Source: Candidatus Nomurabacteria bacterium (GTDB taxonomy: Bacteria; Patescibacteriota; Minisyncoccia; Phycocordibacterales; UBA9973). Taken from it: a stretch of 64,000 bases of DNA. Under the pieces are notes generated by a model. That model had not been told where the DNA came from. It did not search any database and saw nothing but the letters and a program-made list of their open reading frames with translations. Shown one piece after another: positions 1,102-52,809 of this stretch. Position numbers and translations under genes: made by a program. The stretch is taken from NCBI GenBank assembly GCA_037139835.1, contig JBAXFQ010000002.1:10659-74658 (forward strand). The letters are read 5' to 3'. Each line of letters opens with the position of its first letter. Within the stretch, counting starts at the first letter, position 1.

Positions 1102-1677
1102 TCAAGAAATAGATTTTAATTTATCCAACAATTCCTTTAAATCAGCGGCTAGGGGACTAAGGGGCCATTTATTTAAAATGGCGTTTATCATCTTTATATG
1201 TGAATCTATTATCTTTTCCTTCGGAGCGTGGAATTTTTTAAATATTTCTTCACCTTCTTTTTTATAGTCAACAAGTGTCTCAGATACATTGGCTATGATA
1301 TCTGCTGACTTTAATAAGAGGGAATCATGGGAGAAAGTTTTTACATGTTCTAATGCTTCAGCTTTTCTTTCTTTCCAAGACAAAGACTTATCTTGTTCTG
1401 TGACACTAAGGACAAGATTATATACATTCTCTCCGAATCTTTCGACAATCATCTCTTTTGAGACTTTCTTTTCATCAATACTGTCTTCAATAGTATCATG
1501 GAGTATTCCAGCCACTATTACATCCTCTTTTGAACCTGCTGCCGCAAGGATAAGGCCGACTGTGAGTGGGTGGGTGATATAAGGCACATCTTTACCTTTC
1601 CTTTTCTGCTTCTGGTAAATTTCATGAGTTTTAATCGCGAATCTAATCGCATGTTGTATTTTTTGAGTGTATATCAT
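1102..1677 (-). CDS. HD-domain phosphohydrolase, RelA/SpoT-like (p)ppGpp hydrolase (small alarmone hydrolase type)
   Basis: YITHPLTVGLILAAAG...VAGILHDTIEDS matches the HD motifs of the RelA/SpoT N-terminal hydrolase domain. Confidence 0.6.
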   Translation of the reverse strand: MIYTQKIQHAIRFAIKTHEIYQKQKRKGKDVPYITHPLTVGLILAAAGSKEDVIVAGILHDTIEDSIDEKKVSKEMIVERFGENVYNLVLSVTEQDKSLSWKERKAEALEHVKTFSHDSLLLKSADIIANVSETLVDYKKEGEEIFKKFHAPKEKIIDSHIKMINAILNKWPLSPLAADLKELLDKLKSIS

Positions 1678-2053
1678 ATGTATTATTATACTAATTTTTA
1701 ATTTAATAATACTCTTTGAGCTTTAATTGCTGACTAGGCAAAATAAAAAGCGACTAAGAGTTTTAATCAAGCATCGACTTGCTTAATGAAATCTCCCAAT
1801 CGCCTTTGGCAATCAGTCATGATAAGGTATTTGGTTCACCGCAGATTTCCCAGTTTATCTACCTGATTTTACTCAGGAACCTCACATGGTCTACAACTGG
1901 TAGACTACAGTATTGTTTTGAAGAACAACACACATATTATAGCATGGGTATCTATATGTGACAAATTTAGAATTACTATTTAAATTAAGCCTTAAGTGGT
2001 ATAATTTTGTTAGTTTATACTTATCAAGAGAATAGTTAAAATTCAATAGAACT

Positions 2054-3121
2054 ATGAAAAAAGAAATTGAAATAAAAAGTAAATCTTCAAATAGTAATTT
2101 ACATAAGGCAAATAAGGATAAAAAGGATGAGTTTTACACTCAGCTTATTGATATTGAAAAGGAGCTCAAAAACTATAAAGAACAATTTCGTAATAAAGTA
2201 GTATATTGCAATTGTGATGATCCTTTTGAGAGCAATTTCTTTAAATACTTTGCAAATAATTTTAATGCTCTTGGTTTAAAAAGACTTATTGCTACAAGTT
2301 ATAAGCCTTCACCTATTGCTAATACCCAACTAGAACTATTTGGAGATGATAAAACTTTAAAACCAATAAAAGGACGTCCTAAAACAAATGCTAATAAATT
2401 AATTATAAATGAAGTCAAAGATCTTGATGGTGACGGTGCGTTTGATTTGCGTGATGTTGCTGAACAACTTAAGATAAATAAAAATAATGAATGGTCACCA
2501 ATGGAAGGAGATGGAGATTTTAGAAGTGAAGAAAGTATAGAACTGTTAAAACAAGCAGATATTATAGTAACTAACCCTCCTTTTTCATTATTTAGAGAAT
2601 ATATCACACAACTTACAGAATATAATAAAAAATTTTTGATTATTGGAAATACAAATGCTCTAACTTATAAAGAAATTTTTAAATTAGTTAAAGATGACAA
2701 CCTTCGAACTGGTTATACAAATTTTAATGTCGGGATGTTTTTTGAAGTTCCTGATGATTGGCAAAAGTATCATCACATAGATGAGCACGGGAAAAAAATT
2801 GCTCGGGTTTCTACTTCATGTTGGTTTACAAATCTTGAAGTAGAAAAACATAAACAAGATATTATTCTTTATAAAAAATATGATCAAAATATTTATCTTA
2901 AGTATGATAATTATAATGGTATAGAAGTTCCAAAAGTTCAGGAGATACCAATGGATTATAAAGGTATTATGGGAGTACCAATTACTTTTGTTGACAAGTA
3001 TAACCCAGATCAATTTGAGATAATAAAATTTAGAAAAGGAGATGATGAAAAAGATTTATCTATAAATGGAGGGTATCCATATTTTAGAATTTTAATTAAA
3101 AATAAAAAACCACAAAAATAA
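2054..3121 (+). CDS. N6-adenine DNA methyltransferase, EcoRI-methylase family
   Basis: N-terminus LHKANKDKKDEFYTQLIDIEKEL...VVYCNCDDPFESNFFKYFA closely resembles the M.EcoRI N-terminus as I recall it; catalytic NPPF motif (IIVTNPPFSLF); extended -10 TGgTATAAT at ~1994-2002. Confidence 0.8.
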   Translation: MKKEIEIKSKSSNSNLHKANKDKKDEFYTQLIDIEKELKNYKEQFRNKVVYCNCDDPFESNFFKYFANNFNALGLKRLIATSYKPSPIANTQLELFGDDKTLKPIKGRPKTNANKLIINEVKDLDGDGAFDLRDVAEQLKINKNNEWSPMEGDGDFRSEESIELLKQADIIVTNPPFSLFREYITQLTEYNKKFLIIGNTNALTYKEIFKLVKDDNLRTGYTNFNVGMFFEVPDDWQKYHHIDEHGKKIARVSTSCWFTNLEVEKHKQDIILYKKYDQNIYLKYDNYNGIEVPKVQEIPMDYKGIMGVPITFVDKYNPDQFEIIKFRKGDDEKDLSINGGYPYFRILIKNKKPQK

Positions 3122-3122
3122 T

Positions 3123-4226
3123 ATGAAAATAGATTTAAATAAAATAAAAATTGTTGATGTTGTAAAAGATTATAAAGATAGTGCTGAAGAAGGAATATCT
3201 GCTTTTGGTGGTAAGTTAGATATTCGTCCTAAATATCAAAGAGAGTTTGTATATAGTGGAAAGCAAAGAGATGAAGTAATAAAAACTATTAAAAATGGTT
3301 TTCCTCTAAATGTTATGTATTGGGTTAAGAAAGAAGACGGTAATTTCGAAGTACTTGATGGGCAGCAAAGAACCATAAGTATTGCTCAATATGTCAATGG
3401 AGATTTCTCTATCGAATTCAATGGTAGAACTGCAATGTTTCATAATTTAACCAAAGAAGAGCAAAATCAGATTATGAATTATGAACTTATGATTTATCAC
3501 TGCGAAGGAACTGAAAAGGAAAAACTTGATTGGTTCAAAATAATTAATATAGCAGGAGAAAAATTAACAGATCAGGAGCTTAGAAATGCTGTTTATACTG
3601 GACCATGGCTTTCTGATGCAAAATTAAAGTTTAGTAAAACAAATTGTGCTGCATATTTACTATCAAATGATGGTGGACAACTAATAACTGGTTCACCAAT
3701 AAGACAGGAATATTTGGAAACTGCACTATTGTGGATAAATAATGAGGAAATAGAAGATTATATGTCTAAACATCAGCATGATAAAAATGCAGACAAACTA
3801 TGGCAATATTTTCAAAATGTAATTCATTGGATACGAGAAGTTTTTCCTAATTATCGTAAAGAGATGTCGAGTGTTAGTTGGGGTGAGCTTTATAATGCAC
3901 TTAAGGATAAAAAACTTGATTCAAAAAAAATAGAAAAAGAAATTAAAGAATTAATGCAAGAAGAAGATGTAACAAAAAAATCTGGCATTTATCCGTATGT
4001 GCTTACTCGAAAAGAGAGATATCTTTCTATTCGAGCATTTACACCAAACATGAAAAGAGAAGCATACGAAAGACAAGGTGGCATTTGTGTTGCCTGTAAA
4101 AAAGAATTTTCAATTGGAGATATGGAAGCTGATCATATAAAACCATGGCACGAAGGAGGTAGGACTATTGCCGAAAATTGTCAGATGCTTTGCAAAGAAG
4201 ATAATAGAACTAAATCTGGAAAATAG
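3123..4226 (+). CDS. ParB-like DUF262 domain + C-terminal HNH endonuclease (GmrSD-like two-domain nuclease)
   Basis: DUF262 signature DGQQRT (FEVLDGQQRTISIAQY); C-terminal His-Me/HNH motif CVACKKEF...ADHIKPWHEGG...NCQMLCKEDN; start 1 nt after the MTase stop (operon). Confidence 0.75.
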   Translation: MKIDLNKIKIVDVVKDYKDSAEEGISAFGGKLDIRPKYQREFVYSGKQRDEVIKTIKNGFPLNVMYWVKKEDGNFEVLDGQQRTISIAQYVNGDFSIEFNGRTAMFHNLTKEEQNQIMNYELMIYHCEGTEKEKLDWFKIINIAGEKLTDQELRNAVYTGPWLSDAKLKFSKTNCAAYLLSNDGGQLITGSPIRQEYLETALLWINNEEIEDYMSKHQHDKNADKLWQYFQNVIHWIREVFPNYRKEMSSVSWGELYNALKDKKLDSKKIEKEIKELMQEEDVTKKSGIYPYVLTRKERYLSIRAFTPNMKREAYERQGGICVACKKEFSIGDMEADHIKPWHEGGRTIAENCQMLCKEDNRTKSGK

Positions 4227-4260
4227 TATTTATATAAAGATGAATGTTGAATAATAAATT

Positions 4261-4310
4261 CAAAAAATGCCTCATAAGTGAATTATCACTTATGAGGCAT
4301 TTGATATTTA
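4261..4310. terminator. bidirectional rho-independent terminator (14-bp perfect stem ATGCCTCATAAGTG / CACTTATGAGGCAT)
   Basis: Perfect hairpin flanked by an A-run on the left and a T-run on the right, between convergent genes. Confidence 0.75.
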
Positions 4311-4318
4311 AAATTAAA

Positions 4319-4720
4319 TTAATTTTTGCGTTTATCTATTTTTATTGATAATTGCATTTCTTTTACTATAGAGTCCATACTTCTATTTATTTTTTTGATA
4401 TCATAGAGTATTTGATCCTTAGTTTCTACTGTATCCCTTTTTAGGAATTTTGATGTAAATTGCTTTACATCAGGATAAAATGTGGGAATTAAGGAATCGA
4501 CTTTGGTCAATTTAGAATTTTCTAGTGAATATAGACGAGCATCAATTCTCTTGAATTTTTCAACATAGATAACCATTATAATAGATTGGCTAATAGTTAA
4601 AATCAATAATGATAAATAAATTACATCAATAAAAGAAATTTTCATAATTTTTTGGATTATTTTTTGAGCATTATTCGCTATCTTTAATCTAAAACATAAA
4701 AACAGACGAATGCCTTTCAC
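4319..4720 (-). CDS. hypothetical membrane protein (133 aa)
   Basis: ORF track; one hydrophobic segment; no recognisable motif. Confidence 0.3.
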   Translation of the reverse strand: MKGIRLFLCFRLKIANNAQKIIQKIMKISFIDVIYLSLLILTISQSIIMVIYVEKFKRIDARLYSLENSKLTKVDSLIPTFYPDVKQFTSKFLKRDTVETKDQILYDIKKINRSMDSIVKEMQLSIKIDKRKN

Positions 4721-4771
4721 ATAAATGTGAGAGGACTTGATTCGAAGGTAGTCTAAATTATTCGATATCTT

Positions 4772-4800
4772 TTGTCAACAATCAGTTTATGTGTTATACT
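4772..4800 (+). promoter_or_regulatory. near-consensus sigma70-type promoter TTGTCA-N17-TATACT driving the ORF-free island
   Basis: -35 TTGTCA at 4772-4777, 17-nt spacer, -10 TATACT at 4795-4800. Confidence 0.5.
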
Positions 4801-5215
4801 GCGCTCAAGTTGATCTTTCGAGAGAGACCCATAAACCTTAAGGGAATTTAAATTCTTTTAAGAATAAAAATCAATTAACTAACATGGGAAACTATGGAAA
4901 AGCTAAAGTTAAACTAACTCCTCTAACCTTATTGGTTATATACAGGGGTTCAGTCATTACTTGGGCTGAATATGTTGAAATACGAGATTCTTTCTAGAAA
5001 GAATCTTATGTTTTATTTGACTCTACGATAGTAGACGAGACAGCGAGGCGCAAAAAAGCTGACATATAGGAAAGCAAAATCTAGATAACGGTAAGATCAC
5101 ACTACTAGGATTTTGCGGGTCGTGATTAAATAAATTAATTACATTCATATTTTTTTAAAATATAATTATTAATTAATTTTAAAGGCTGCAAAAATGATTT
5201 TTCTTTTTGCAGCAC

Positions 5216-5264
5216 CCGTAACAAAATGTGTATTTTGTCTGACGAGTCGGAAACGACGAAACGG
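5216..5264 (+). ncRNA. hammerhead ribozyme motif (type III topology; predicted cleavage after GUA between 5220 and 5221)
   Basis: Stem III CCGU(5216-5219)/ACGG(5261-5264); H17 = A5220; stem I hairpin ACAAAAU-GUGU-AUUUUGU (5221-5238); core CUGACGA (5239-5245, fits CUGANGA); stem II GUCG-GAAA-CGAC (5246-5257); GAA (5258-5260). Confidence 0.6.
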
Positions 5265-5317
5265 AGGAGGTGAGGCTACCAAAAGATTCTCTTTAAAAAA
5301 GAGATAATAAATTTTTA

Positions 5318-5758
5318 ATGAAAACATATAAAATATTAATATTAGAAGATGACTTTGAGGCTGTGAGTAAAATCATGGCTAAATTGTATGCATTGGAAGG
5401 TAGCTTTCCATCGATGGATTTTGATGTAACGGTTCTTTCTAGTTCAGAGTCTGTAGTGAAGCTCATCAATCCTCAAGATGCAGGTGCCTATGATGTGATA
5501 CTCCTAGATAGAGAGTGCAAGCTAGGTGGCTCTTTCCACGTCCTTGATATTGAAAAGTTTGGTGCCAATAAGATAATATCTATATCTACTACGCAGGCTT
5601 GGAATGAAGAAGCCAGAGCAAGGGGAGTCACAAGAGTCGTACCGAAAGTTTTCAATGATATGGACGCATTTGCTAGAAAATTAATGATAGAGATAAGAGA
5701 AGTCCTAACTGGAAATAATCCTTCACAATATCAAACCCGACGTTCTAGTAGTTTATAA
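5318..5758 (+). CDS. stand-alone response-regulator receiver (CheY-like) domain protein
   Basis: KILILEDDFE... acidic pocket and ...YDVILLDRE (phospho-acceptor Asp context); no output domain; no adjacent histidine kinase. Confidence 0.6.
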   Translation: MKTYKILILEDDFEAVSKIMAKLYALEGSFPSMDFDVTVLSSSESVVKLINPQDAGAYDVILLDRECKLGGSFHVLDIEKFGANKIISISTTQAWNEEARARGVTRVVPKVFNDMDAFARKLMIEIREVLTGNNPSQYQTRRSSSL

Positions 5759-5866
5759 TTATAGTTTTCTCTTTTTTACTGTGAAAATTCTCCCTATGCA
5801 AAAAGGGTTGTACCATTTTTTTTATGAATTAGAATAGCTAGCAGGATTTTTAAATAATGGTCTATT

Positions 5867-6619
5867 ATGTATAATAAACGAATGCATAGCAAAAAAATAA
5901 TTATAATTTTATACTGTATTTTTATTTTGTGTGGCGCCTTGTCTTTGGTTTATATTCCAGATGCATCAAAATATTCTTATGGCTCAATTTTTGCATTGTT
6001 CATAATATCTCTACCTTTGTTTTATACACTTTATTTTAGATTTGGAATAAATACATTCATTAAATTAATTTTTTCTCTATCTTTATTTGCATTGCTCATA
6101 GAATATGTAGGGCTTGTCACAGGTTGGCCGTATGGAGAATTCTTATATACTGGGAATCTCGGTTATAAATTGTTTGGAATACTGCCATGGACTGTCGGAC
6201 TTTCCTGGACACCGCTTGTCGTCGGGTCTGTTGCTATGGTCTATCCTGTCACACAAAGAAAAGTATTACGAATCATATTGCCTGTAATAGTGTTGGTTGT
6301 TTTTGATCTGCTTCTTGATCCAGTAGCTGTTAATTTGGGTATGTGGTCATATTTACATGGTGGGGCATATTACAGCGTGCCTATTCAAAACTTTTTTGGT
6401 TGGATATTTTCTGGTTTGATTGGATCATTAATATGTTTTTATATTTTAAATAAATCTGATAATAAAATTTTTAATTTAGGATATAGTCTTCTTATTAATA
6501 TTATTTTTTGGTCTATCGTAGCTTGGGGTTTAGGATTGTATATACCTTTAATTTTCGGAATTTTTCTTATTATGTGTTTTACTGTGATATACTTTAAAAA
6601 TAATGAAAGATTTTCTTAA
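5867..6619 (+). CDS. polytopic membrane protein, carotenoid-cluster associated (candidate lycopene-cyclase-domain / carotenoid hydratase-like protein)
   Basis: About 7 hydrophobic segments; 3' end overlaps the start of the UbiA-family gene (translational coupling); function inferred from context only. Alternative start ATG 5882 (the 5867 ATG sits inside a TGTATAAT-like -10). Confidence 0.35.
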   Translation: MYNKRMHSKKIIIILYCIFILCGALSLVYIPDASKYSYGSIFALFIISLPLFYTLYFRFGINTFIKLIFSLSLFALLIEYVGLVTGWPYGEFLYTGNLGYKLFGILPWTVGLSWTPLVVGSVAMVYPVTQRKVLRIILPVIVLVVFDLLLDPVAVNLGMWSYLHGGAYYSVPIQNFFGWIFSGLIGSLICFYILNKSDNKIFNLGYSLLINIIFWSIVAWGLGLYIPLIFGIFLIMCFTVIYFKNNERFS

Positions 6620-7433
6620 GATAAGTCGCCCAAGGTTTTGGGTTTATGTAGCGGGACCCTTTTGGCTTTGTGGAGCTATATTTTACCCGTTGGGTGTAAA
6701 TATTACCCCGATGCTCATTTTTTTACTTTACTTTACCTTTCCGGCGAATATTTTAATATATGGAATCAATGATTTATATGATCGTGCAACCGACACTCTC
6801 AATACTAAAAAGACTTCATATGAGCAGGTTTTAGATAAAAAGTATGATAAAAAATTGATCTGGATTATCATACTTACAAATATACCTTTTTTGATTTATG
6901 GTTTTTTTGTTTTGCCAACAGCGTCATTTATATGCCTATTATTATTTGTAGTTTTATCTTGGCAGTATTCTGCAACTCCATTAAGAGCCAAAGCTGTCCC
7001 ATTTTTAGATAGCTTTGTCAGTGGTCTTTTATATATAGTGCCAGCCGGTGTTTCTTGGGCCCTTATTACAAATTCTTATCCACCATTCTTGCCAATGTTG
7101 GCTGGCTTTTTATGGTCTTACTCTATGCATTTGTATTCTGCTGTGCCTGATATCAATGCAGATAAAATGGCAGGTATCCAAACGGGAGCGACACTCTTAG
7201 GTAAAAATACCACGCTTATTTTATGTGGTGTTTTATATGCAGTGTCTTCCTTGATAGCTTATTTTTATATTGGGTTTTTTGCAATTATTGCTGGGTTGGG
7301 ATATTTGTATTTAATATTTATTTCCATCAAAAAAAGTAAACCAGAAGAAGTTCTCGTTATATATAAAATATTTCCATTTTTAAATACATTAGTTGGTGGA
7401 ATTCTTTTCGCGATTCTATTTTTTCTGCATTAA
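6603..7433 (+). CDS. UbiA-family aromatic/isoprenoid prenyltransferase (candidate lycopene elongase-like)
   Basis: UbiA superfamily Asp-rich motif NDLYDRATD and second motif DINAD; polytopic membrane protein; adjacent to crtI/crtB/polyprenyl synthase. Confidence 0.6.
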   Translation: MKDFLKISRPRFWVYVAGPFWLCGAIFYPLGVNITPMLIFLLYFTFPANILIYGINDLYDRATDTLNTKKTSYEQVLDKKYDKKLIWIIILTNIPFLIYGFFVLPTASFICLLLFVVLSWQYSATPLRAKAVPFLDSFVSGLLYIVPAGVSWALITNSYPPFLPMLAGFLWSYSMHLYSAVPDINADKMAGIQTGATLLGKNTTLILCGVLYAVSSLIAYFYIGFFAIIAGLGYLYLIFISIKKSKPEEVLVIYKIFPFLNTLVGGILFAILFFLH

Positions 7434-8945
7434 TTATAGACTCTTTAGAGGATGAACATCTTCATTTTTTGTAATACGTTTATAGACTAATTCTGCTGAG
7501 ATTATGCATATAGGCATACCTATACCTGGGTTTGTACCTGCTCCGACATAAAATAAATTTTTTATTGTTTTATGAATATTGTTTGGTCTAAATAGTGCAG
7601 TTTGATTTATCGTATGAGCAAGACCTAGGGCTGTGCCTTTATAAGCATTGTAGTCTATTTCAAAATTTTTAATAGAATAAGTCTTTTTAAAAATTATTCT
7701 ATCTCTAATATTATTTACACCTGCATAATTTTCAATTTCTGATAATACTTTTTCTGTGTATTCCTTTTCGAAATTATCATCATATGTAAGGCCTGGGGCT
7801 ATAGGTACTAAGACGAACAAATTTTCACAGTCAGCAGGCGCAATATTCTTATCGCTTTTTGATGGAGCACTTATATAAATAGATGGATCATCGGGCCATT
7901 TAGGATTATGAAATATCTGATCAAAGCCTTTACTCCAGTCTTTTGAAAAAATTAAATTATGATGTTCTAAGCTAGGTATTTTATCTTTTATACCTAGATA
8001 AAGTATAAATGCACTAGGGGCAAGCATTCGACTATCCCAATATTTTTCGCTGTGCTCTTGGTATGGTGCTTTTAATAAATGTTGATCAGTGTATGTAATA
8101 TCTGCATTTGAAATAACAATATCAGCGAAAATTTTTTCATCATTGTTTGTCAATCTTATGCCTTTGGCGATGTTATCTTCTACGATAATCTCACTTACTG
8201 GCGAATTTTTCATTATTTTTACGCCATTTTTAATTGCAATTTTTTCCATTGCCTCTGGTAGTTTCCAGACACCTCCATCGGGGTACCATACTCCTAGTCC
8301 AAAATCTACATAATTCATCATGCTATATATACCAGGGCAGTCGCCAGGAGCAGTCCCTAGTAACACCATTTGATATTGCAAGACTTTTTGCAATATCTCA
8401 CTTTTGAAGCGAGACTCGATTATTTGCTTTTGCTTTTTTAGAAGTGGTAATTTCCATCCAACTTTAGCGACACTCCAAGTTAGAAAATCAAAAATAGAAT
8501 TATAATTTTTAAACATGAATTCATTATATGCAATACTGTATTGTAATTTTAATTTATCTAAAAATTTTACCAATACCTGTCCGCTACCTGGTTCTATTTT
8601 TTCAAATGTTTCTTTATTTTTATCTATATCACCAAAAAAATCATAATGTGATTTGTCACTTTTTAGGAAAACACGGTATGAAGGGGACAGCTTTTTTAAA
8701 GTATAATAATCACTGATTTTTTCACCCATAAGTTCAAAGAAATGTTCGAATACTTCAGGCATCATATACCAGCTTGGGCCCATGTCGAAGATAAAACCAT
8801 TTTGTTCAAATACTCTGGCCCGACCACCGACTGATTCATTCTTTTCAACAATCGTTACATCGTAGCCCTTTTTTGCAAGCATACAAGCCGAGGCCAAGCC
8901 TCCGATACCCGCACCAATAATGATTATAGATTCTTTTTTATTCAT
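7434..8945 (-). CDS. crtI: phytoene desaturase family FAD-dependent oxidoreductase (CrtI/CrtN-like)
   Basis: N-terminal FAD fold IIIGAGIGGLASACMLAKKGYDVTIVEKNESVGGRA; ~500 aa, typical of the CrtI family. Confidence 0.8.
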   Translation of the reverse strand: MNKKESIIIIGAGIGGLASACMLAKKGYDVTIVEKNESVGGRARVFEQNGFIFDMGPSWYMMPEVFEHFFELMGEKISDYYTLKKLSPSYRVFLKSDKSHYDFFGDIDKNKETFEKIEPGSGQVLVKFLDKLKLQYSIAYNEFMFKNYNSIFDFLTWSVAKVGWKLPLLKKQKQIIESRFKSEILQKVLQYQMVLLGTAPGDCPGIYSMMNYVDFGLGVWYPDGGVWKLPEAMEKIAIKNGVKIMKNSPVSEIIVEDNIAKGIRLTNNDEKIFADIVISNADITYTDQHLLKAPYQEHSEKYWDSRMLAPSAFILYLGIKDKIPSLEHHNLIFSKDWSKGFDQIFHNPKWPDDPSIYISAPSKSDKNIAPADCENLFVLVPIAPGLTYDDNFEKEYTEKVLSEIENYAGVNNIRDRIIFKKTYSIKNFEIDYNAYKGTALGLAHTINQTALFRPNNIHKTIKNLFYVGAGTNPGIGMPICIISAELVYKRITKNEDVHPLKSL

Positions 8946-8949
8946 AAGA

Positions 8950-9792
8950 TTAAAAATATTTAATTATAATATAGATCTTTCTAAGTATTGAAACTCGCAC
9001 TCTTTCCTTGAATATTCTTTCGGGCTTCTTCTTTATTTTTTCCATTATTTCTTTATACAAATAAAGGGCTATACGTACCGCCCGCCTCCCTGATTTATTT
9101 AACATTGGTATACCTTTTAGTGCTTCATTGTATAAAATTTCGTTTCTTTCAATTTCATACAGTACTAGTTTTTTCATTTGTTCGCTCATTACTTCATTAT
9201 GAAAATCAGCTTCTGTCATGTTGTATCTTTTTATATCATCTTGAGGTATGTATATGCGCCCACGAGCTAGGTCTTCCTTTATGTCACGTAAAAAGTTTGT
9301 AAGCTGAAATGCTTCCGCTAATGCTTTTGCATAGATTAAAGCCCCATCATTAAAGCCGATTATACAGGACATCATATAACCCACAACAGTAGCTGAACCG
9401 TACATGTATTTCTCAAGTTCACTGTAATTTGCATAACGATTTTTATTCGTATCTTGAAGCATTGAGTCTAGAAATATATCACTGTACTCAAAAGGTATCT
9501 TGCAGTCATTCCAGAGTACTGCATTGGCTCTAAGTACTGGGTTCACATCAGTTGATCCATTATATGCCTTTTCCCATTCATTCTTCCACGCTAAAATTTT
9601 TTGTCTTGCTATATTTGAATCTTTCTCTTCGGTATCAACTATTTCATCAGGATAGCGCACAAATGCATATAATACCCAAGTCCGTTCTCTCAAATTTTTT
9701 GGGAAAAAATATGTAGAAATAAAATACGATGTACCATATGAACGAGTCATATTTTTGCAAATTTGTATATCATTTGATTGGATTTTTTCCAT
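8950..9792 (-). CDS. crtB: phytoene/squalene (dehydrosqualene) synthase family
   Basis: YAFVRYPDEIVD (first Asp-rich motif) and DLARGRIYIP (second motif) of trans-isoprenyl diphosphate synthase head-to-head enzymes. Confidence 0.8.
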   Translation of the reverse strand: MEKIQSNDIQICKNMTRSYGTSYFISTYFFPKNLRERTWVLYAFVRYPDEIVDTEEKDSNIARQKILAWKNEWEKAYNGSTDVNPVLRANAVLWNDCKIPFEYSDIFLDSMLQDTNKNRYANYSELEKYMYGSATVVGYMMSCIIGFNDGALIYAKALAEAFQLTNFLRDIKEDLARGRIYIPQDDIKRYNMTEADFHNEVMSEQMKKLVLYEIERNEILYNEALKGIPMLNKSGRRAVRIALYLYKEIMEKIKKKPERIFKERVRVSILRKIYIIIKYF

Positions 9793-10833
9793 TTAGTATT
9801 TTCTTTTTGTTACTATTGAAAGTAAGTTTATAATTTTTTCTAAGTATTCCTTTTTTAAATTAGATTTTGAGATAGCGTCCAGAGCAATACTTTCTTTCTG
9901 TTTAATAAAATTTTCCGCAAAATTAAAAGCTCCAGTATGCTTTAGAAATAAATTTATTTCCTCTTGGTTATTTATGTTTTTGTTTCCAAACCATTTAGCC
10001 CAAGTCTCATTTTCTTCCATTGTTGCATTTTCATCAATGTATATACTTATCATAGTATGTACTCCGTTTTTCATATCACCCAAGGGGTTCTTTTTAAGTG
10101 TCACTACATCTTTTGTGAAATCAAAAATATCATCTTGCATTTGAAATAGTAAGCCTACAGAATCACCGAAATCCGTAATCCATGAAAAATCTTTAATTTC
10201 ACCTTTGGCTAGTATCGCTCCCAACATTAAAGGGTGGGTGAAAGTATACCTAGCAGTTTTTAAGAGCATCTTATTCTCGGCATTAATCATAGTTACTGAT
10301 TTATCAATAGGATCATATACATCAATCATTTGGCCAATTATTACCTCTTCTGTAAGTAAATGAATAATATTCCAAGATTCCTGCGTTTGATTGCATTTAC
10401 TGAATTCTTTGTATGCCCAAGAAAAAACAAGGTCACCTAATAGTATCGCTATCGACTGACTTATTTGTTTTGCTGTTTCTTTATTTGTTTTAGAATCTAG
10501 GTCCTGTTCTATGTATTTATGTACAGAGGTGGCTCCATGTCGTGTATCTGATGCATCCATGATATCGTCATGAATCAGTGCCATTAAGTGAATTAGCTCT
10601 ATACCTATTAAAGTATTTTTTATGTCATGCCAGTTTTTACCAGAATATATACTATATGTCAGCGCAGTATTGTATGGTCGTATTCTCTTGCCGTTCGAGC
10701 CAATTGTAAGTAAATATTTTAAATAATCTGTACTTGGGTGTAATTTAAGTCTAGAATTTGAATCTGATATTAGCATTTTTAGCTCATTTTCAAATATAAT
10801 ATCAAATTCTACTTTAAAATCATTTATATTCAT
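9793..10833 (-). CDS. polyprenyl diphosphate synthase (GGPP/FPP synthase type)
   Basis: FARM LIHDDIMDASDTRHG and SARM FQMQDDIFDF. Confidence 0.8.
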   Translation of the reverse strand: MNINDFKVEFDIIFENELKMLISDSNSRLKLHPSTDYLKYLLTIGSNGKRIRPYNTALTYSIYSGKNWHDIKNTLIGIELIHLMALIHDDIMDASDTRHGATSVHKYIEQDLDSKTNKETAKQISQSIAILLGDLVFSWAYKEFSKCNQTQESWNIIHLLTEEVIIGQMIDVYDPIDKSVTMINAENKMLLKTARYTFTHPLMLGAILAKGEIKDFSWITDFGDSVGLLFQMQDDIFDFTKDVVTLKKNPLGDMKNGVHTMISIYIDENATMEENETWAKWFGNKNINNQEEINLFLKHTGAFNFAENFIKQKESIALDAISKSNLKKEYLEKIINLLSIVTKRKY

Positions 10834-11000
10834 ATATAGTTTGATAATAACACAATTTTACACAATTAAAAAAGCAGAATCTTCACTCACAAGGCTGCAT
10901 GATTACTCATTCGACTTTATATGAATTTAAAGTCTTATTCATAATTAATAAAATTTATCATGAATATGACATTTAGCTATATTTCTGTTATATTCTATCT

Positions 11001-12113
11001 ATGTCACTATCAATCGGAATCGTAGGTCTACCAAACGTCGGGAAGTCGACACTTTTTAACGCTCTTACAAAGAAGGGTGTGCCTTGCGAGAACTACCCAT
11101 TTTGTACGATAGATCCTTCTGTAGGTGTCGTGGCTGTTCCTGACGATCGTATATGGAAGCTCTCAGAATTCTCGAAATCTGCCAAGACTATTCCTGCCGC
11201 TATTGAATTCGTAGATATTGCCGGACTCGTAAAAGGAGCATCGGAGGGTGAAGGACTTGGAAATAAATTCTTGGCCAACATTCGTGAAGTGGATGCAATC
11301 CTTGAAATGGTCAGAATCTTTCCACTCAAGAATGATAAAGGCGATGAGATATTACATGTCATGGGCGATATTGATCCACTTCGTGATATAGAAATAATTA
11401 ATTTAGAATTAATCCTTGCCGACTTAGAAACAGCTGTAAAAAGGAAGAACAATATCGCTCGAGAAATCAGACGTGGAGATAAAGAATTTATCCTAGAAGA
11501 AGAAGCTTTAAATAAAATTATTCCGACACTTGAAGCTGGCAAGCTTGCCAACACTATAGACTTCAATGAAAAAGAATTAGAGAAAGTAAAACAACTTGGT
11601 CTTTTGACTATGAAGCCATTTATATATGGACTCAATAAAAGAGCTGGAGCTGAAAATCTAGATACTTCAAATCCAGAAATTTTTAAAGAGCTCACAGACT
11701 ATATTGAAAGCATGGGTTCAAGATATGTGGTGATAGATGCAAAGATTGAACATGAACTTATGGACTTTGAAGGAGAAGAGAAGGAAATGTTCCGAAAAGA
11801 ACTTGGAGGGGATGATGATGGTATAAATAGTCTTATAACCGAAGGGTATAAGCTCCTAGGTCTAGATACTTACTTTACGACCGGAGAGGATGAGACGAGA
11901 GCTTGGACAATAAAAAAGGGAAGTACTGCACCTGTCGCTGGTATGGCTATACATACAGACTTCAAAGATAAATTTATAAGAGCTGAAGTAGTTTTCTGGA
12001 AAGATTTACTAGACTCAGGTAGCTATGCTGAAGCTCGCTCAAAAGGAAAAGTCCGAACAGAAGGAAAGGAATATATAGTGAAGAATGGAGATGTCGTAGA
12101 ATTCAAAATTTAA
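11001..12113 (+). CDS. ychF: ribosome-binding ATPase YchF (Obg-family)
   Basis: GIVGLPNVGKSTLFNALT P-loop; C-terminal TGS-like region; length 370 aa. Confidence 0.9.
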   Translation: MSLSIGIVGLPNVGKSTLFNALTKKGVPCENYPFCTIDPSVGVVAVPDDRIWKLSEFSKSAKTIPAAIEFVDIAGLVKGASEGEGLGNKFLANIREVDAILEMVRIFPLKNDKGDEILHVMGDIDPLRDIEIINLELILADLETAVKRKNNIAREIRRGDKEFILEEEALNKIIPTLEAGKLANTIDFNEKELEKVKQLGLLTMKPFIYGLNKRAGAENLDTSNPEIFKELTDYIESMGSRYVVIDAKIEHELMDFEGEEKEMFRKELGGDDDGINSLITEGYKLLGLDTYFTTGEDETRAWTIKKGSTAPVAGMAIHTDFKDKFIRAEVVFWKDLLDSGSYAEARSKGKVRTEGKEYIVKNGDVVEFKI

Positions 12114-24151: not shown

Positions 24152-24223
24152 GCCCTCGTAGTTCAATGGATAGAACAGTCCCGTCCTAAGGGATAGATGT
24201 CAGTTCGATTCTGGCCGGGGGCA
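24152..24223 (+). tRNA. tRNA-Arg (anticodon CCU), 72 nt, CCA not encoded
   Basis: Acceptor GCCCTCG/CGGGGGC, D-arm GTTC-AATGGATA-GAAC, anticodon arm GTCCC-GTCCTAA-GGGAT, T-arm GTCAG-TTCGATT-CTGGC. Confidence 0.8.
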
Positions 24224-24440
24224 CACACTCAAAAATATCTTTTTAAAGATATTTTTGAGTGTGTGCCCCGAACAAGCAAACTTCTTTGCTTGTGTGCCAG
24301 AATCGAAGACCTTGAGCTTGGATTTTAAAATTATTATTTTAAAATACGCGAAAGGTGTACTGAACCTGTAAGGTTCGATAAGCGTAACCGTGGTCGGCCG
24401 GGGGCACCAATTATATACTCGCGGTCTGGCCGGGGGCACC
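24218..24440 (+). repeat. tRNA-Arg-associated downstream module: near-perfect palindrome (arms ~24218-24243 / 24246-24269) overlapping the tRNA 3' end, GC hairpin, antisense T-arm copy (GCCAGAATCGAA), GTAA-loop hairpin, box CGATAAGCGTAACCGTGGTC, two acceptor-3'-end copies (GGCCGGGGGCACC at ~24396-24408 and 24428-24440)
   Basis: Same architecture and shared boxes (AAAAATATCTT...AAGATATTTTT centre; GAATCGAAGAC; CGATAAGCGTA; TACTCGCGGTC) as the tRNA-Gly module. Confidence 0.7.
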
Positions 24441-48318: not shown

Positions 48319-48840
48319 TTAAGCTTCCTTTATTTCTAAGAATGCCTCGATGACTACTTGATCTCCTATGAGAACACCTCCAGTCTCAAGTGCTACATTC
48401 CAGACTAGTCCGAAGTCGCTACGATTTATCTTTCCAAATAATTCAACTCCTATAACTTTCTCGCTCTCCATGCCTTTAGCTAGGTCACTTAGAGAAGCTT
48501 TCAATTCAACTTCTTTAGTTATATCTTTTATCGTTAAATTACCTTTTATACTTAGTTCATTCTTTACTCTTTTAACAGAAGTAGAAACGAAGGACATAGT
48601 AGGAAACTTTGCTGAGTCAAAAAAATCAGCACTCATAAGATGTTCATTCCTATCTTTGTTGTTCGTACTGATACTATTTGTATTAGTTGTAAAATTGATA
48701 GTCCCTCCGTCTAATGTGTCATCTTTTGCTGATATATTACCTTCAAAATCAGTAAATATACCTCGTATTGTTGATATCATTAAATGTCTAACCTTGAACG
48801 CTACTTCTGCATGAGCAGTATCTATTTTCCATGTATTCAT
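48319..48840 (-). CDS. YceI-family (polyisoprenoid-binding) protein
   Basis: MNTWKIDTAHAEVAFKVRHLMISTIRGIFTDFEG matches the YceI-like domain N-terminal signature. Confidence 0.75.
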   Translation of the reverse strand: MNTWKIDTAHAEVAFKVRHLMISTIRGIFTDFEGNISAKDDTLDGGTINFTTNTNSISTNNKDRNEHLMSADFFDSAKFPTMSFVSTSVKRVKNELSIKGNLTIKDITKEVELKASLSDLAKGMESEKVIGVELFGKINRSDFGLVWNVALETGGVLIGDQVVIEAFLEIKEA

Positions 48841-48936
48841 GTTTTTTTTATTACAATCAACTTACTGACATTGCATGCTTGTAGTCAATATATTGATTAT
48901 TTTTAATTATCTTTAATATTCTTAATATACACTAGT

Positions 48937-48961
48937 TACTTTACAAAGTAAAGTACTTTAC
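48937..48961 (+). promoter_or_regulatory. candidate operator: TACTTTAC-aaa-GTAAAGTACTTTAC (three half-sites; 14-nt perfect palindrome 48948-48961) overlapping the -35 of the HxlR-family regulator promoter, divergent from the YceI gene
   Basis: Inverted-repeat half-sites seen directly; -35 TTTACA (48958-48963) and extended -10 TGATACTAT (~48977-48985). Confidence 0.5.
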
Positions 48962-48993
48962 ATTATACAGCACAAATGATACTATCTGTCTAT

Positions 48994-49281
48994 ATGAATA
49001 AAACAATACATACAAATTGCCCTATAGCTAAAACAGCCCAGCTACTATCTGACTCTTGGACTATGCTTATTATTCGTGATTTATTGGGCAATAGTATGCG
49101 TTTTTGTGAAATAGAGACTTCTCTTGATGGTATTAGTAGCCGCACCTTGGCTTTAAAGTTGAAACGTTTAGAAGAGGAGAAGATAATAAAAAAATCAGAA
49201 TTATACTATTCACTTACAGCTCAGGGGAAAAAATTAAAAAAAGTTATAGATGCTATGGAATCTTGGGGTAAGACATTATAA
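48994..49281 (+). CDS. HxlR-family winged-helix transcriptional regulator
   Basis: CPIAKTAQLLSDSWTMLIIRDLLGNSMRFCEIETSLDGISSRTLALKLKRLEEEKII; start moved to ATG 48994 (track start 48976 lies inside the predicted -10). Confidence 0.75.
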   Translation: MNKTIHTNCPIAKTAQLLSDSWTMLIIRDLLGNSMRFCEIETSLDGISSRTLALKLKRLEEEKIIKKSELYYSLTAQGKKLKKVIDAMESWGKTL

Positions 49282-49298
49282 TTTTAAATATAAAATAT

Positions 49299-50096
49299 AT
49301 GAATAAATATAAAATGCCAGTTATCTTTGTTGGGCACGGTAGTCCTATGAATGCAATAGAAGATAACGAATTTACAAAGAATTTTAAAAAAGTAGCTAAG
49401 GGTATACCAAAGCCGAAGGCTATCATTTGCATATCAGCACATTGGGTTACAGAGGGTACTAAAGTAACAGCTATGGAAAAGCCTAAAACCATTCATGACT
49501 TTTATGGATTTCCTGAAGAGTTATATAATATAGAATATCCTGCTGTTGGAAGCTTGAAATTAGCTGAAGAGATAAAGAGCTTGCTTTCAGATACTACAGT
49601 TGAGTCAGATTATAGCTGGGGTCTTGATCATGGTACTTGGTCTGTACTTAGACACATGTATCCTGATGCGGATGTACCTGTAGTTCAGATAAGTCTAGAT
49701 TATAATAAATCATCTAAAGAACATTTTGATTTAGCCAAAAATCTTTCAAAACTTCGTGAAGAAGGAATTTTGATAATAGGGAGTGGGGATATAGTTCACA
49801 ACTTGAGAGAAATAGACTTTAAAAATATTGAAACTCATGATTATGGATATGATTGGGCAAAAAGGATACAGAAAGATATAAATAAGGATATACTCGAAGA
49901 CCATTTTGAGAATATATATAATTATGATGATAAGAATAGTGATTATAATCTAGCTATACCTACGCCAGAACATTTTTGGCCGCTTCTGTATGTACTAGGC
50001 TTAAAAGAAGAGTCAGATAATATAGAAATATGGAATGATATACTTGTTGGAGGATCTCTAAGTATGACCTCTATAACTGCTTCAAATTCCAAATAA
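49299..50096 (+). CDS. class III extradiol ring-cleavage dioxygenase (YgiD/DOPA 4,5-dioxygenase-like)
   Basis: PVIFVGHGSPMNA...ISAHW...LDHGTWSVL conserved His ligand context. Confidence 0.75.
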   Translation: MNKYKMPVIFVGHGSPMNAIEDNEFTKNFKKVAKGIPKPKAIICISAHWVTEGTKVTAMEKPKTIHDFYGFPEELYNIEYPAVGSLKLAEEIKSLLSDTTVESDYSWGLDHGTWSVLRHMYPDADVPVVQISLDYNKSSKEHFDLAKNLSKLREEGILIIGSGDIVHNLREIDFKNIETHDYGYDWAKRIQKDINKDILEDHFENIYNYDDKNSDYNLAIPTPEHFWPLLYVLGLKEESDNIEIWNDILVGGSLSMTSITASNSK

Positions 50097-50217
50097 TTTT
50101 TTGGTATTTTTACGATATATGACCAAATAGATGAATATTGACACTACTATGCAATAGTTGTATATTTCATCTATATTTGTCCTTTATATACTTAAATATT
50201 CTTAAAAAAAATTAATT

Positions 50218-50976
50218 ATGAAAAAAATCAATTTAATTTTATTGTTTGTTTTTGGGTTGTTCTTAGTTATTCTTAATGGATGTAAAAAAGATAAGGAAAC
50301 AAGAGTTTTTGTTGCTTCGGGACATCCAGCCTGGGCACCTATTATGTATCAAGAGGGTAATCAGATTATTGGAGCTGGCCCTGAGATTGCAGATATGATC
50401 TTTAAAGAGCTTGATTTAAAAGTTTTATTTCCGTATGAAGGCCTCTGGGATGTTGTTCAAGCAAAAACTAAGAGTGGAGAAATTGACATGATTGTAGCTG
50501 CGTATAAGACAGCTGAAAGGGAGACTTATATGGATTATTCTGTGATCTATACAGTTGATCCAGTATCTATCTTTGTTAAAAAAGGAAAAACTTTCCCGTT
50601 TGTTAACTGGAATGAACTTTTGAGTAAAAAGGGAGTTGTAACTACTGGTGATAGCTATGGTCAGGCTTTTGATCAATATATCAAAAATAGTCTATCTGTT
50701 GCCTCTGTAACTACTCCTGATGAAGCCTTCAATCTTCTCCTTACTGACCAGGCAGATTATTTTGTTTATGCATACTATTCTGGAACTAATTACTTAACAA
50801 GTAAGAATTTGAATAGTCAAATAGAAGTTTTATCGAACTACGTTAGTTCTGAAAACTTTTATATGTGTATTTCAAAAAAATCACCACTTTTAGTATATCT
50901 TCCAAAAATTAATTCAATTCTTGAAAGATACAAGAATGATGGGACTATCGATCGAGTGATCCAAAAGTATAAATAA
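50218..50976 (+). CDS. lipoprotein, ABC-transporter substrate-binding protein family 3 (amino-acid type)
   Basis: Lipobox LNGC; periplasmic-binding fold length; no cognate permease/ATPase adjacent. Confidence 0.55.
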   Translation: MKKINLILLFVFGLFLVILNGCKKDKETRVFVASGHPAWAPIMYQEGNQIIGAGPEIADMIFKELDLKVLFPYEGLWDVVQAKTKSGEIDMIVAAYKTAERETYMDYSVIYTVDPVSIFVKKGKTFPFVNWNELLSKKGVVTTGDSYGQAFDQYIKNSLSVASVTTPDEAFNLLLTDQADYFVYAYYSGTNYLTSKNLNSQIEVLSNYVSSENFYMCISKKSPLLVYLPKINSILERYKNDGTIDRVIQKYK

Positions 50977-50994
50977 ATTTAAAGTTTATTTATT

Positions 50995-51027
50995 AAAAAA
51001 CGGCAGAAGTTCTGTCGTTTTTTTATT
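50995..51027 (+). terminator. rho-independent terminator AAAAACGGCAGA-agt-TCTGTCGTTTTTTT
   Basis: Stem with one G-T pair plus 7-T run. Confidence 0.65.
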
Positions 51028-51069
51028 TATATTAATTTTGTTTAACTTAAATATTAATTCTGATACAAT

Positions 51070-51507
51070 GTGTATATGATAAAAGAAGGAACAAAAATAA
51101 TAGATTTTAGTCTTGTTGATCAAGACAAAGTAGTACACAAATTATCAGATTATTCTACAGGTCGCGTGCTTTTGTATTTTTACCCCAAAGATGATACTCC
51201 TGGATGTACAAAAGAAGCATGTATGATAACAGAAGTTTATGATGATTTTATAAAGGCAGGAATCACTGTTCTAGGTGTATCCTCTGATTCACCAGAGAGT
51301 CATAAGAAATTTAAAGAAAAATATAATTTACCTTTTACTCTTTTGTCAGATACAGACAAAAAGGTTATTAAGGATTATGGAGCTTCTTCTTTATTATTCA
51401 CCAAAAGAATTTCATATCTTATAGATAAAGGGGTAATAATCAAAGTTTATCCGAAAGTTGACCCTGCAACTCATGCGATAGAAATATTAAAAGAAATAGG
51501 AATATAA
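51070..51507 (+). CDS. bcp: thiol peroxidase / peroxiredoxin Bcp
   Basis: FYPKDDTPGCTKEAC peroxidatic Cys motif. Confidence 0.8.
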   Translation: MYMIKEGTKIIDFSLVDQDKVVHKLSDYSTGRVLLYFYPKDDTPGCTKEACMITEVYDDFIKAGITVLGVSSDSPESHKKFKEKYNLPFTLLSDTDKKVIKDYGASSLLFTKRISYLIDKGVIIKVYPKVDPATHAIEILKEIGI

Positions 51508-51565
51508 TACCAAATAAAAACTCCCGAACGGGAATTTTAATTATATTTTATAATCAAGTTCGATA

Positions 51566-51650
51566 AAATTAGAATTAGATTGTAAGGGGCATAAGGGGAT
51601 TTTGATGAAAAAAATAATCACTTGACAAAATATTTCTATGTGATATGATA
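51566..51650 (+). repeat. copy 1 of repeated promoter module (AAATTAGAATTAGATTGTAAGGGGCATAAGGGGATTT + TTGACA-N17-TATGAT at 51622-51650)
   Basis: Homologous to copies at 52550, 53424, 54310 and 55231. Confidence 0.7.
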
Positions 51651-51962
51651 TTAACCGAGTAGTCTAGTATGTTTCAAACTTTCATTTTGAAATTAGCCCG
51701 AGACAAAAGGCTGGTATTCGTTTCAAAAAACTCATGGCGATGAGAAAAGCAGAGATCGCCATCTCTGAGAGAAACATGAATACAGAACGATAAAATATCT
51801 TTTAATAAATTTTGTAATAAAAAAATTCTAATTTAAAGCACCGTCATAATTTTGGCGGTGTATTTATTTTTATTTAAAATATATAAGTATTTTAAAAATT
51901 AACTAGACAAAACGAGATATTTGGGGTAATGTGGAGAAAATTCACAATTAAAAATTAACACG

Positions 51963-52469
51963 ATGAAAAAGGTTTATTTTTTTAGTCTATTGATTACTGG
52001 AATTCTATACGGGAATGTTGGTAGGGCTCAGTGTATAGAGAAGTTGATTTTATCTACAACATTAGATGAAATTTCTGATGTTATTGATAATAATGTCTCT
52101 TGTATAAAAGAGACATTAAATAATCAAAAATATGAAAAGTTTAAATTTAAGATAAATTATTTATATAAAACTTCTTATATTTGGGTTTATCATAAAAATC
52201 CGGAGAAAGAAAGATTGTTTAATAAATTTTATCAAACCTATGGATATTTATATCCTAGTCTGTTATCCATTAAACCAACTTCTGGCATCTTTTATGATGC
52301 TCTAAATGAAATGATTGCTAGCGACCCTAAGTACTTTTCTCAAATTCAGAAAACAAATATTCCACTCAAATATATACAGTGGATGAGAGTCAAAGGTTTG
52401 AAAGAAAAATTTGGTGAAGCAAGCGTCATCCGGTTAATGCAATCTGCTTCTAAAATTATTGATATGTAG
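51963..52469 (+). CDS. hypothetical secreted protein (168 aa)
   Basis: Signal peptide MKKVYFFSLLITGILYGNVGRAQC; ~300-nt leader after module copy 1. Confidence 0.35.
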   Translation: MKKVYFFSLLITGILYGNVGRAQCIEKLILSTTLDEISDVIDNNVSCIKETLNNQKYEKFKFKINYLYKTSYIWVYHKNPEKERLFNKFYQTYGYLYPSLLSIKPTSGIFYDALNEMIASDPKYFSQIQKTNIPLKYIQWMRVKGLKEKFGEASVIRLMQSASKIIDM

Positions 52470-52507
52470 TTTAGACAATAAATTTTTTAAAAAGAAAGGA
52501 GAATAGG

Positions 52508-52662: not shown

Positions 52663-52809
52663 TACAATATATATAGCTCTTTGAAAACGAATATTTTTTT
52701 CGTCGTCAGACATAAGGTTTTGATACTTTATGCCTGGCGATGATGAACATTTCCAGGTCTGTGCTAATGTTGGCATAGAAATCGACGGTGATCGTCGAAA
52801 GGAGACAAT

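Follow-up and report, generated by a model that had tools for sequence, protein, structure and literature searches.

A compact single-desaturase locus for a putative bacterioruberin-type C50 carotenoid pathway in a Candidatus Nomurabacteria genome

The DNA analyzed in this report, hereafter the window, is a stretch of 64,000 nucleotides (nt) of contig JBAXFQ010000002.1 (assembly GCA_037139835.1, positions 10,659 to 74,658), from a metagenome-assembled genome (MAG) of Candidatus Nomurabacteria, a lineage of the candidate phyla radiation (CPR, or Patescibacteria). Five adjacent genes at window positions 5867 to 10833 probably form a self-contained acyclic C50 pathway of the bacterioruberin type in this cell, a reading to which we assign a probability of roughly 0.7. 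Judged from the encoded proteins, the cluster is of the acyclic bacterioruberin type, with a LyeJ-type prenyltransferase and CruF, and not of the cyclic CrtEb/CrtYeYf type. Presence and intactness of the genes, their families, the conserved synteny and the native composition are observed; we infer the enzymatic steps, the end product and the physiological role from homology and synteny. The genes and the adjoining intergenic region are as follows.

5867..6619, plus strand: cruF-like carotenoid hydratase, 250 residues, polytopic membrane protein
6603..7433, plus strand: lyeJ-like UbiA-family prenyltransferase, putative lycopene C5-elongase/1,2-hydratase, 276 residues, NCBI MEI7688708.1
7434..8945, minus strand: CrtI-family desaturase, putative bifunctional phytoene desaturase/3,4-desaturase (CrtI/CrtD), 503 residues, MEI7688709.1
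8950..9792, minus strand: crtB, phytoene synthase, 280 residues, PF00494
9793..10833, minus strand: idsA/crtE-like short-chain trans-prenyl diphosphate synthase, presumed geranylgeranyl diphosphate (GGPP) synthase, 346 residues, first in the minus-strand operon
10834..11000, no strand: AT-rich intergenic region of 167 nt between idsA (minus) and ychF (plus), from its position the presumed promoter region of idsA-crtB-crtI/D

All five open reading frames (ORFs) are intact, with exactly the coordinates and strands given in the original prediction, an earlier annotation of this DNA. The motifs that it quoted are present in the translations, namely, YAFVRYPDEIVD and DLARGRIYIP in CrtB, NDLYDRATD and DINAD in the UbiA-family protein, and two DDxxD motifs (DDIMD and DDIFD) in the prenyl synthase, and the plus-strand pair, which it called translationally coupled, overlaps, cruF and lyeJ sharing 17 nt. 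It also described the minus-strand trio as divergent from this pair; the strands are right, but the two units are convergent, with the lyeJ stop ending at 7433 and the desaturase stop beginning at 7434, and it is from ychF (11001, plus strand) that the trio diverges, with the 167-nt region between. Profile matches to the five proteins are well beyond chance, with E-values of 2e-38 for PF04240, 2e-22 for PF01040, 4e-144 for TIGR02734, 2e-61 for PF00494, and 1e-43 for PF00348.

Within the minus-strand trio, the genes are separated by gaps of 0 and 4 nt (idsA-crtB-crtI/D). The lyeJ and desaturase genes stand tail to tail with zero intergenic bases, their stop codons occupying 7431-7433 and 7434-7436. 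No terminator-like hairpin was found between them at this junction (window 7420-7450), so that, if termination does not take place within the opposing genes, the two transcripts would run over each other, with possible interference. Consensus scans of 5200-11200 gave 33 promoter-like sites, compared to 30.2 ± 6.1 in shuffled controls, and 4 terminator-like sites, compared to 2.7, an excess in neither case. A further ORF, of 146 residues, precedes cruF on the plus strand (5318-5758), at a distance of 109 nt; its N terminus resembles a CheY receiver (MKTYKILILEDD...), it has no Pfam or NCBIfam match, and among related loci it is kept beside the cluster only in an identical Logan contig (L001).

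The order of steps proposed here is drawn from knowledge of the families as summarized in PMC11946383 and PMC9122864. IdsA would condense isopentenyl diphosphate (IPP) with allylic diphosphates to give GGPP, and CrtB would join two GGPP into phytoene, which the single CrtI-family desaturase would convert to lycopene. LyeJ would then add a C5 unit from dimethylallyl diphosphate (DMAPP) onto C-2 at each lycopene end and hydrate the 1,2 bond, the same desaturase would introduce the 3,4 and 3',4' double bonds, in the manner of the bifunctional CrtI/CrtD enzymes known from Haloarcula japonica, and CruF would hydrate the two added isoprene units, yielding a tetra-hydroxy C50 product expected to reside in the cytoplasmic membrane. 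With a desaturase that is bifunctional as in Ha. japonica, five genes could suffice to lead from IPP and DMAPP to bacterioruberin.

Since the NCBIfam models for the prenyltransferase carry the uninformative name "prenyltransferase", we calibrated them with annotated reference loci taken by tblastn from a plasmid collection. Three were used: a canonical haloarchaeal crtI-prenyltransferase-cruF-crtB cluster on a Halocatena salina megaplasmid (L084), a decaprenoxanthin-type crtE-crtB-crtI-cyclase-crtEb cluster on a replicon of Arthrobacter sp. StoSoilB13 (L085), and a LyeJ-like paralogue outside any carotenoid cluster on Haloferax larsenii plasmid pHl5678-1 (L086). The Arthrobacter locus (1478-6837) is on a 1-Mb "plasmid" whose record carries no PLSDB annotation; crtE-crtB-crtI-crtYe is followed there by an ORF of 399 residues, of which residues 111-395 match CrtEb and the N-terminal 110 may represent a fused or mis-started CrtYf. 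The Haloferax paralogue (L086 4864-10505) sits amid two other UbiA prenyltransferases and a geranylgeranyl reductase, without carotenoid genes.

Model NF009516 (cutoff 205) gave 426 bits for Halocatena, 134 for Arthrobacter and 221.1 for the window protein, and NF009608 (cutoff 217) gave 109, 469 and 133.5 bits, respectively. The reference scores thus identify NF009516 as the LyeJ-type model (a KEGG-style name that JGI gives to homologues) and NF009608 as the CrtEb-type one; the window protein goes with LyeJ, passing the one cutoff and not the other. Of the original proposal that this is a CrtEb/LyeJ lycopene elongase of a C50 pathway, the elongase part is thereby supported in its LyeJ form, and the CrtEb form is dropped. 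The protein belongs to PF01040 (80 bits), has several hydrophobic segments by hydropathy, as expected of a polytopic membrane protein, and scores 29 bits or less on the UbiA, MenA, MqnP and chlorophyll synthase (ChlG) models, counting against the quinone-type enzyme that the original prediction had named as its undoing. The residues N56, D57, D60 and D64, and D183 and D187, which form the NDxxDxxxD and DxxxD motifs, are invariant in 49 homologues. Identity to the Halocatena LyeJ is 37%; a search of the PDB for the window protein found no solved relative at E ≤ 0.01.

The CruF-like protein matches PF04240 (Caroten_synth) with 132.7 bits (cutoff 25) over 201 of the 209 positions of the profile, and has about seven hydrophobic segments by hydropathy; an alternative start 15 nt downstream would give 245 residues. 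It is 35% identical to H. salina CruF over 172 residues. The two bisanhydrobacterioruberin hydratase models, TIGR03460 and NF041333, are its top NCBIfam matches, well ahead of the gamma-carotene 1'-hydroxylase CruF model (55 bits). The neighbouring membrane protein had been expected to be a cyclase or a hydratase: these matches point to a hydratase, and no lycopene-cyclase-domain match appeared in any window ORF scanned, whereas the Arthrobacter reference locus has one (TIGR03462).

The desaturase is a CrtI-family flavoenzyme with an N-terminal GAGIGG FAD-binding motif, matches to PF01593 and PF13450, and 480.9 bits on TIGR02734 (cutoff 238.1). On NF058655, the equivalog model for "CrtID bifunctional phytoene/3,4-desaturase" (cutoff 640), it scores 613.4 bits, between the Halocatena cluster enzyme (749.5) and the plain Arthrobacter CrtI (453.5). 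Its best PDB match is a 3',4'-desaturase (4rep, 247 bits), ahead of Pantoea CrtI (4dgk, 216 bits). The 64-kb window encodes no other desaturase, and in related loci, too, there is just one within 8 kb on either side. Our literature search found no paper using the name CrtID, but the concept is present in PMC11946383, where Ha. japonica C0507 and D1086 were each shown genetically to have both CrtI and CrtD desaturase activities, and where a bifunctional CrtI/CrtD was proposed for bacteria that make bacterioruberin with one CrtI; activity of the haloarchaeal enzymes in Escherichia coli could not be shown.

The remaining two enzymes would supply the C40 precursor. IdsA matches PF00348 with 149.6 bits, carries DDIMD and DDIFD as its first and second Asp-rich motifs (FARM/SARM), has no hydrophobic segments, and has the GGPP synthase of Corynebacterium glutamicum as its best PDB match (3lk5, 102.9 bits). 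CrtB matches PF00494 (SQS_PSY) with 208.5 bits, has the Asp-rich motifs DEIVD and DIKED and no hydrophobic segments, and is 33% identical to the CrtB of the Halocatena cluster. Among PDB entries it comes nearest to a phytoene synthase (5iys, 96.5 bits), with HpnC close behind (4hd1, 92 bits), and its best NCBIfam match is HpnD (173 bits, compared to 150 for the CrtB models), with all CrtB and Hpn equivalogs below cutoff. Affinity of CrtB to squalene synthases was the other result that the original prediction had named as its undoing. The CrtB of the Halocatena bacterioruberin cluster is also topped by HpnD (193 bits), and we therefore regard the HpnD match as an artefact of the library, since a genuine haloarchaeal cluster CrtB shows the same pattern. 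The assignment of CrtB as phytoene synthase rests mainly on context.

That context is widely conserved. A protein search (E ≤ 1e-5) returned 212 relatives; among the 120 matches listed, the first 50 or so are 50-84% identical and nearly all metagenomic, and the remoter ones bear the JGI name "lycopene elongase/hydratase" or are Acidobacteriota proteins. When one genome per GTDB species was scanned, 526 species genomes had relatives, and we compared the best 80 loci, locating the window's five proteins by tblastn within 8 kb on either side. About 19 of these are CPR MAGs (Nomurabacteria, Paceibacterota, Parcubacteria, Vogelbacteria, Peribacteria, Saccharimonadales and "Saccharibacteria"), and the others include many Acidobacteriota (Pyrinomonadaceae, Chloracidobacterium and Blastocatellia), Actinomycetota (Microlunatus and Friedmanniella), Gammaproteobacteria MAGs, a Bizionia and an Armatimonas. 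A core of lyeJ, a single desaturase and crtB is kept in nearly all of the 80, crtB not being adjacent in Actinomycetota, and cruF is usually adjacent as well; no second desaturase was found within 8 kb in any of them.

The closest CPR loci (L004-L009), with 51-80% LyeJ identity, have the same five-gene order as the window: cruF and lyeJ on one strand, followed by crtI/D, crtB and idsA on the other. The cruF/lyeJ overlap recurs in the closest relatives, at about 8-17 nt, and ychF is near the cluster in two of the six loci (82% identity in L009). A second group of CPR loci (L015, L016, L020, L046, L060, L069, L070, and L076) has lyeJ, the desaturase gene, crtB and idsA, with no cruF within 8 kb; their pathways may end with products of bisanhydrobacterioruberin type, or cruF may be located elsewhere in these genomes, as was observed in a Saccharibacteria genome from Lake Baikal (PMC9948471). 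The idsA gene adjoins crtB in 12 of 20 CPR loci. All-against-all clustering of the ORFs of these 20 loci, in which idi, glycosyltransferase, rhodopsin and cyclase genes were sought, gave no extra neighbour recurring in more than three.

Individual loci show further features. One cluster gene appears split into two ORFs in L004 (crtB, 4404-5262) and in L020 (desaturase, 8838-10374), which could be due to frameshifts from assembly errors or to decay of these copies. A gene for MiaA, the tRNA dimethylallyltransferase that uses DMAPP, lies beside the cluster in three CPR loci (L004 1-959, L006 332-1288, and L076 7051-7965), a peroxiredoxin gene is directly upstream of lyeJ in L070 (7492-7992), and a thioredoxin-reductase-like gene follows idsA in L015 (12202-13203). 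These neighbours are weak hints of a DMAPP and oxidative-stress theme and do not amount to a conserved association.

Trees were calculated by distance-based neighbour joining with 200 bootstraps from the best 80 loci only. The window's LyeJ falls in a clade with 90% support and a second CPR LyeJ clade has 82%, while the desaturases of the window, L004-L009, L015, L016, L046 and L070 form a CPR-only clade with 100% support; Saccharimonadales sequences fall outside these clades, as do a few others from CPR. Such a topology is compatible with a single old CPR lineage passed on mainly by vertical descent, together with some independently acquired copies. Judging by their names, the related MAGs may come from lakes, rivers and glacier-fed streams. 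In work on haloarchaea and Arthrobacter, C50 carotenoids are reported to make membranes stiffer, to adjust their fluidity at low temperature and to guard against light and oxidants (PMC8709818, PMC9948471), and by analogy the likely roles here are membrane reinforcement, control of fluidity in the cold, and protection from light and oxidants. Tentatively, and at slightly less than even odds, we propose that the locus represents a CPR-specific single-desaturase bacterioruberin lineage, largely vertical in Patescibacteria of the Paceibacteria/Parcubacteria type, in which a self-made, membrane-spanning C50 pigment would stiffen or protect membranes in cold, oxic or sunlit fresh water.

Several observations weigh against the reading of the cluster as a complete bacterioruberin-type pathway. 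The CruF-like protein is under both equivalog cutoffs (115.4 bits for TIGR03460, cutoff 154.7, and 100.2 for NF041333, cutoff 300), which the Halocatena CruF passes (167 and 356 bits), and the desaturase is narrowly under that of NF058655. Because of these missed cutoffs, clear for CruF and narrow for CrtID, we call the proteins CruF-like and CrtID-like and not certified equivalogs. The Haloferax paralogue, outside carotenoid clusters, is also above the NF009516 cutoff (223 bits), so that this score alone does not prove lycopene elongase activity and genomic context is needed too. The NF009516 equivalog is not specific to function, and the paralogue may prenylate something else. In IdsA, whose C20 product is presumed, the first Asp-rich motif is preceded by M and A in place of aromatic residues, and all NCBIfam matches are below cutoff. 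The 64-kb window has no IPP- or DMAPP-forming genes and no idi. The MurJ and Mur genes of the host suggest a need for undecaprenyl phosphate and hence for isoprenoid precursors.

The alternative that survives best, although we consider it unlikely, is that the cluster makes an elongated C45 or C50 carotenoid other than bacterioruberin, because the desaturase is a phytoene desaturase only or because elongation takes place at one end. With a phytoene-only desaturase, the products would be 3,4-saturated, resembling tetrahydro-bisanhydrobacterioruberin (TH-BABR), and would then be hydrated by CruF. Such compounds can be stable end points, since Ha. japonica mutants without C0507 accumulate TH-BABR and dihydroisopentenyldehydrorhodopin (DH-IDR) (PMC11946383), and Arthrobacter agilis and A. 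bussei keep crtI and crtD as separate genes (PMC9122864). The shortfall of the window enzyme on the CrtID model fits this alternative, but the score is 160 bits above that of the plain CrtI of the decaprenoxanthin cluster, the protein is nearer to the solved 3',4'-desaturase than to Pantoea CrtI, and in some 70 related loci one desaturase is the norm. Under either reading, a second desaturase gene may lie elsewhere in the genome.

Less probable still is a prenyltransferase that is not an elongase and whose acceptor is a quinone or a lipid, with the cluster making a C40 hydroxy-carotenoid and CruF serving as a lycopene 1,2-hydratase, as in the CruF of cyanobacteria and Deinococcus. The prenyltransferase gene is locked to the desaturase gene and crtB in nearly all 80 loci, across at least five phyla, and in the window's clade it overlaps cruF; in the window it also abuts the desaturase gene. 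Furthermore, no quinone-biosynthesis gene was seen in the window, and the low scores on the quinone and chlorophyll prenyltransferase models point the same way. These observations outweigh the two that would suit a non-elongase, namely, the LyeJ-like Haloferax paralogue found without carotenoid genes and the weak match of the window CruF to the gamma-carotene 1'-hydroxylase model.

Secondary metabolism of this kind is uncommon in the reduced genomes of CPR bacteria, which raises the question of whether the cluster is foreign to its host, through a chimeric assembly or a recent transfer, or is decaying and non-functional. We consider this very improbable. The UbiA-family protein is identical to MEI7688708.1, [quoted passage not shown]. 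The contig is 116 kb long, and within it the cluster has housekeeping genes on both sides; the other window genes bear out the minimal, CPR-like context originally described: YchF, Sua5, TsaD, LeuRS, ValRS, LysRS, LepA, GreA and L9, four tRNAs, and a peptidoglycan and division set of MurJ, four Mur ligases, two penicillin-binding proteins and MraZ/MraW. In composition, the five genes are native to the host: their GC content is 0.30-0.33, compared to 0.332 ± 0.027 for 40 other window genes, their GC content at third codon positions is 0.235-0.281, compared to 0.237 ± 0.038, and their codon-usage deviation is 0.083-0.121, compared to 0.093 ± 0.026. A separate assembly, from run SRR12676973, yielded an identical contig of 5.9 kb, and related CPR MAGs from a range of studies have the cluster too, even with the same neighbour, ychF. 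The apparently split genes of L004 and L020 would be in keeping with decay, but none of the five ORFs in the window is truncated, and their catalytic motifs are intact.

A squalene- or dehydrosqualene-type synthase in place of CrtB, in an HpnCDE-like or a C30 CrtM/CrtN-like pathway, is scarcely credible and was rejected, because its one attraction, the HpnD match, recurs in the Halocatena phytoene synthase and falls, like the HpnC score, below cutoff, the cluster has a single SQS_PSY gene with no HpnC or HpnE partners (HpnE 43 bits), the best structural match is a phytoene synthase, and the desaturase strongly matches C40-type CrtI/CrtD models.

Elsewhere in the window, the ORFs scanned included neither a second desaturase nor a rhodopsin, and gave no glycosyltransferase adjoining the cluster. 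A short distance upstream of the five genes (2054-4226, plus strand), a gene for an EcoRI-like adenine methyltransferase (PF13651, 435 bits) is followed after 1 nt by one for a protein with GmrSD_N and HNH nuclease domains, a pair that looks like a restriction-modification or modification-dependent defence system. A region of lower GC content (0.28-0.29) and redox or stress flavour at 48319-55150 encodes a YceI-like protein, an HxlR regulator, a LigB-type dioxygenase, an AhpC/TSA peroxiredoxin, a short-chain dehydrogenase/reductase (SDR) and a solute-binding protein, along with three ORFs without a Pfam match, and may be an acquired islet. The YceI-like family is known as polyisoprenoid-binding, and this member could conceivably bind isoprenoids or carotenoids. 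At 23.5-24.9 kb, tRNA genes (Gly, Arg and Phe) are mixed with small ORFs, of which one of 79 residues (24200-24439, minus strand) overlaps tRNA-Arg (24152-24224) on the opposite strand and is almost certainly spurious.

Ultra-small CPR cells are commonly regarded as incapable of making the lipids of their own membranes. If the pathway is active, a reduced-genome CPR bacterium devotes about 5 kb to complete synthesis of a C50 pigment, which would imply active control of its own membrane properties or photo-oxidative protection and would bear on the free-living or light-exposed state of presumed epibionts. For the CrtI/CrtD bifunctionality proposed from haloarchaea, this compact, low-salt version with a single desaturase is a convenient test system; if the reading is true, this desaturase from a non-halophile would be the first bifunctional CrtI/CrtD testable in E. 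coli, and the locus would serve as a minimal set of genes for making bacterioruberin in a heterologous host. Uncultivated CPR cells would, moreover, have in the pigment a Raman or absorbance signature by which they could be sorted.

The haloarchaeal bacterioruberin cluster, described for Ha. japonica as crtI/crtD(c0507)-lyeJ(c0506)-cruF(c0505) by Yang et al. 2015 (as cited in PMC11946383) and Yatsunami et al. 2024, is represented in our comparison by the Halocatena locus. It shares with the window a LyeJ-type prenyltransferase, CruF, a CrtI-family desaturase of CrtID type and an adjacent crtB; lyeJ and cruF overlap in both, and in both one desaturase could give both activities. The two differ in that sequence identity is only 35-42%, with CruF and the desaturase under the NCBIfam equivalog cutoffs, and in that the window has cruF before lyeJ, a desaturase gene convergent on the opposite strand, and a gene for a GGPP synthase. 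Furthermore, the window's host is a non-halophilic, low-GC bacterium with a reduced genome.

Among bacteria, bacterioruberin is produced by Arthrobacter agilis and A. bussei (PMC9122864, PMC8709818) and by Rubrobacter radiotolerans (PMC11946383), which likewise exemplify a bacterial C50 pathway based on LyeJ and CruF. The role in membrane fluidity and cold adaptation proposed for these producers would suit the cold or freshwater habitats at which the names of related MAGs hint. In Arthrobacter, crtI and crtD are distinct genes divided between two clusters, idi-idsA-crtB-crtI and lye-crtD-cruF (PMC9122864), unlike in the window, with its one desaturase, one compact five-gene locus and no idi.

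The cyclic C50 pathway of C. glutamicum, crtE-crtB-crtI-crtYe-crtYf-crtEb (PMC3598387), represented here by the Arthrobacter sp. StoSoilB13 locus, resembles the window in having a UbiA-family C5 elongase beside crtB and crtI and a GGPP synthase in the cluster. It differs in its CrtYe/Yf lycopene-cyclase-domain genes, in place of which the window has a CruF hydratase, and in its elongase, the window prenyltransferase failing the CrtEb-type model.

Closest in host are the Patescibacteria of Lake Baikal, in which lyeJ, crtD and cruF were reported and C50 bacterioruberin synthesis with a membrane role was inferred (Haro-Moreno et al. 2023, PMC9948471); PMC12650772 also mentions both Patescibacteria and bacterioruberin, but the latter for haloarchaeal isolates only, and was set aside as not relevant. 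The gene families are well known, and such genes in Patescibacteria are already published (PMC9948471), so that the earlier view of pigment synthesis as unexpected next to CPR-like housekeeping genes was overstated, especially as CPR account for about 19 of the 80 species genomes with the best matches. The Baikal genomes belong to the same phylum-level group as the window and have the same three marker genes, but there the genes are scattered or on separate reads and their trees are polyphyletic (PMC9948471), whereas in the window the predicted steps from prenyl diphosphate to end product are encoded in one 5-kb locus belonging to a well-supported CPR clade. New here is that a complete and compact locus of five genes, with a single desaturase, stands on a long Nomurabacteria contig and is kept in a supported clade of CPR bacteria.

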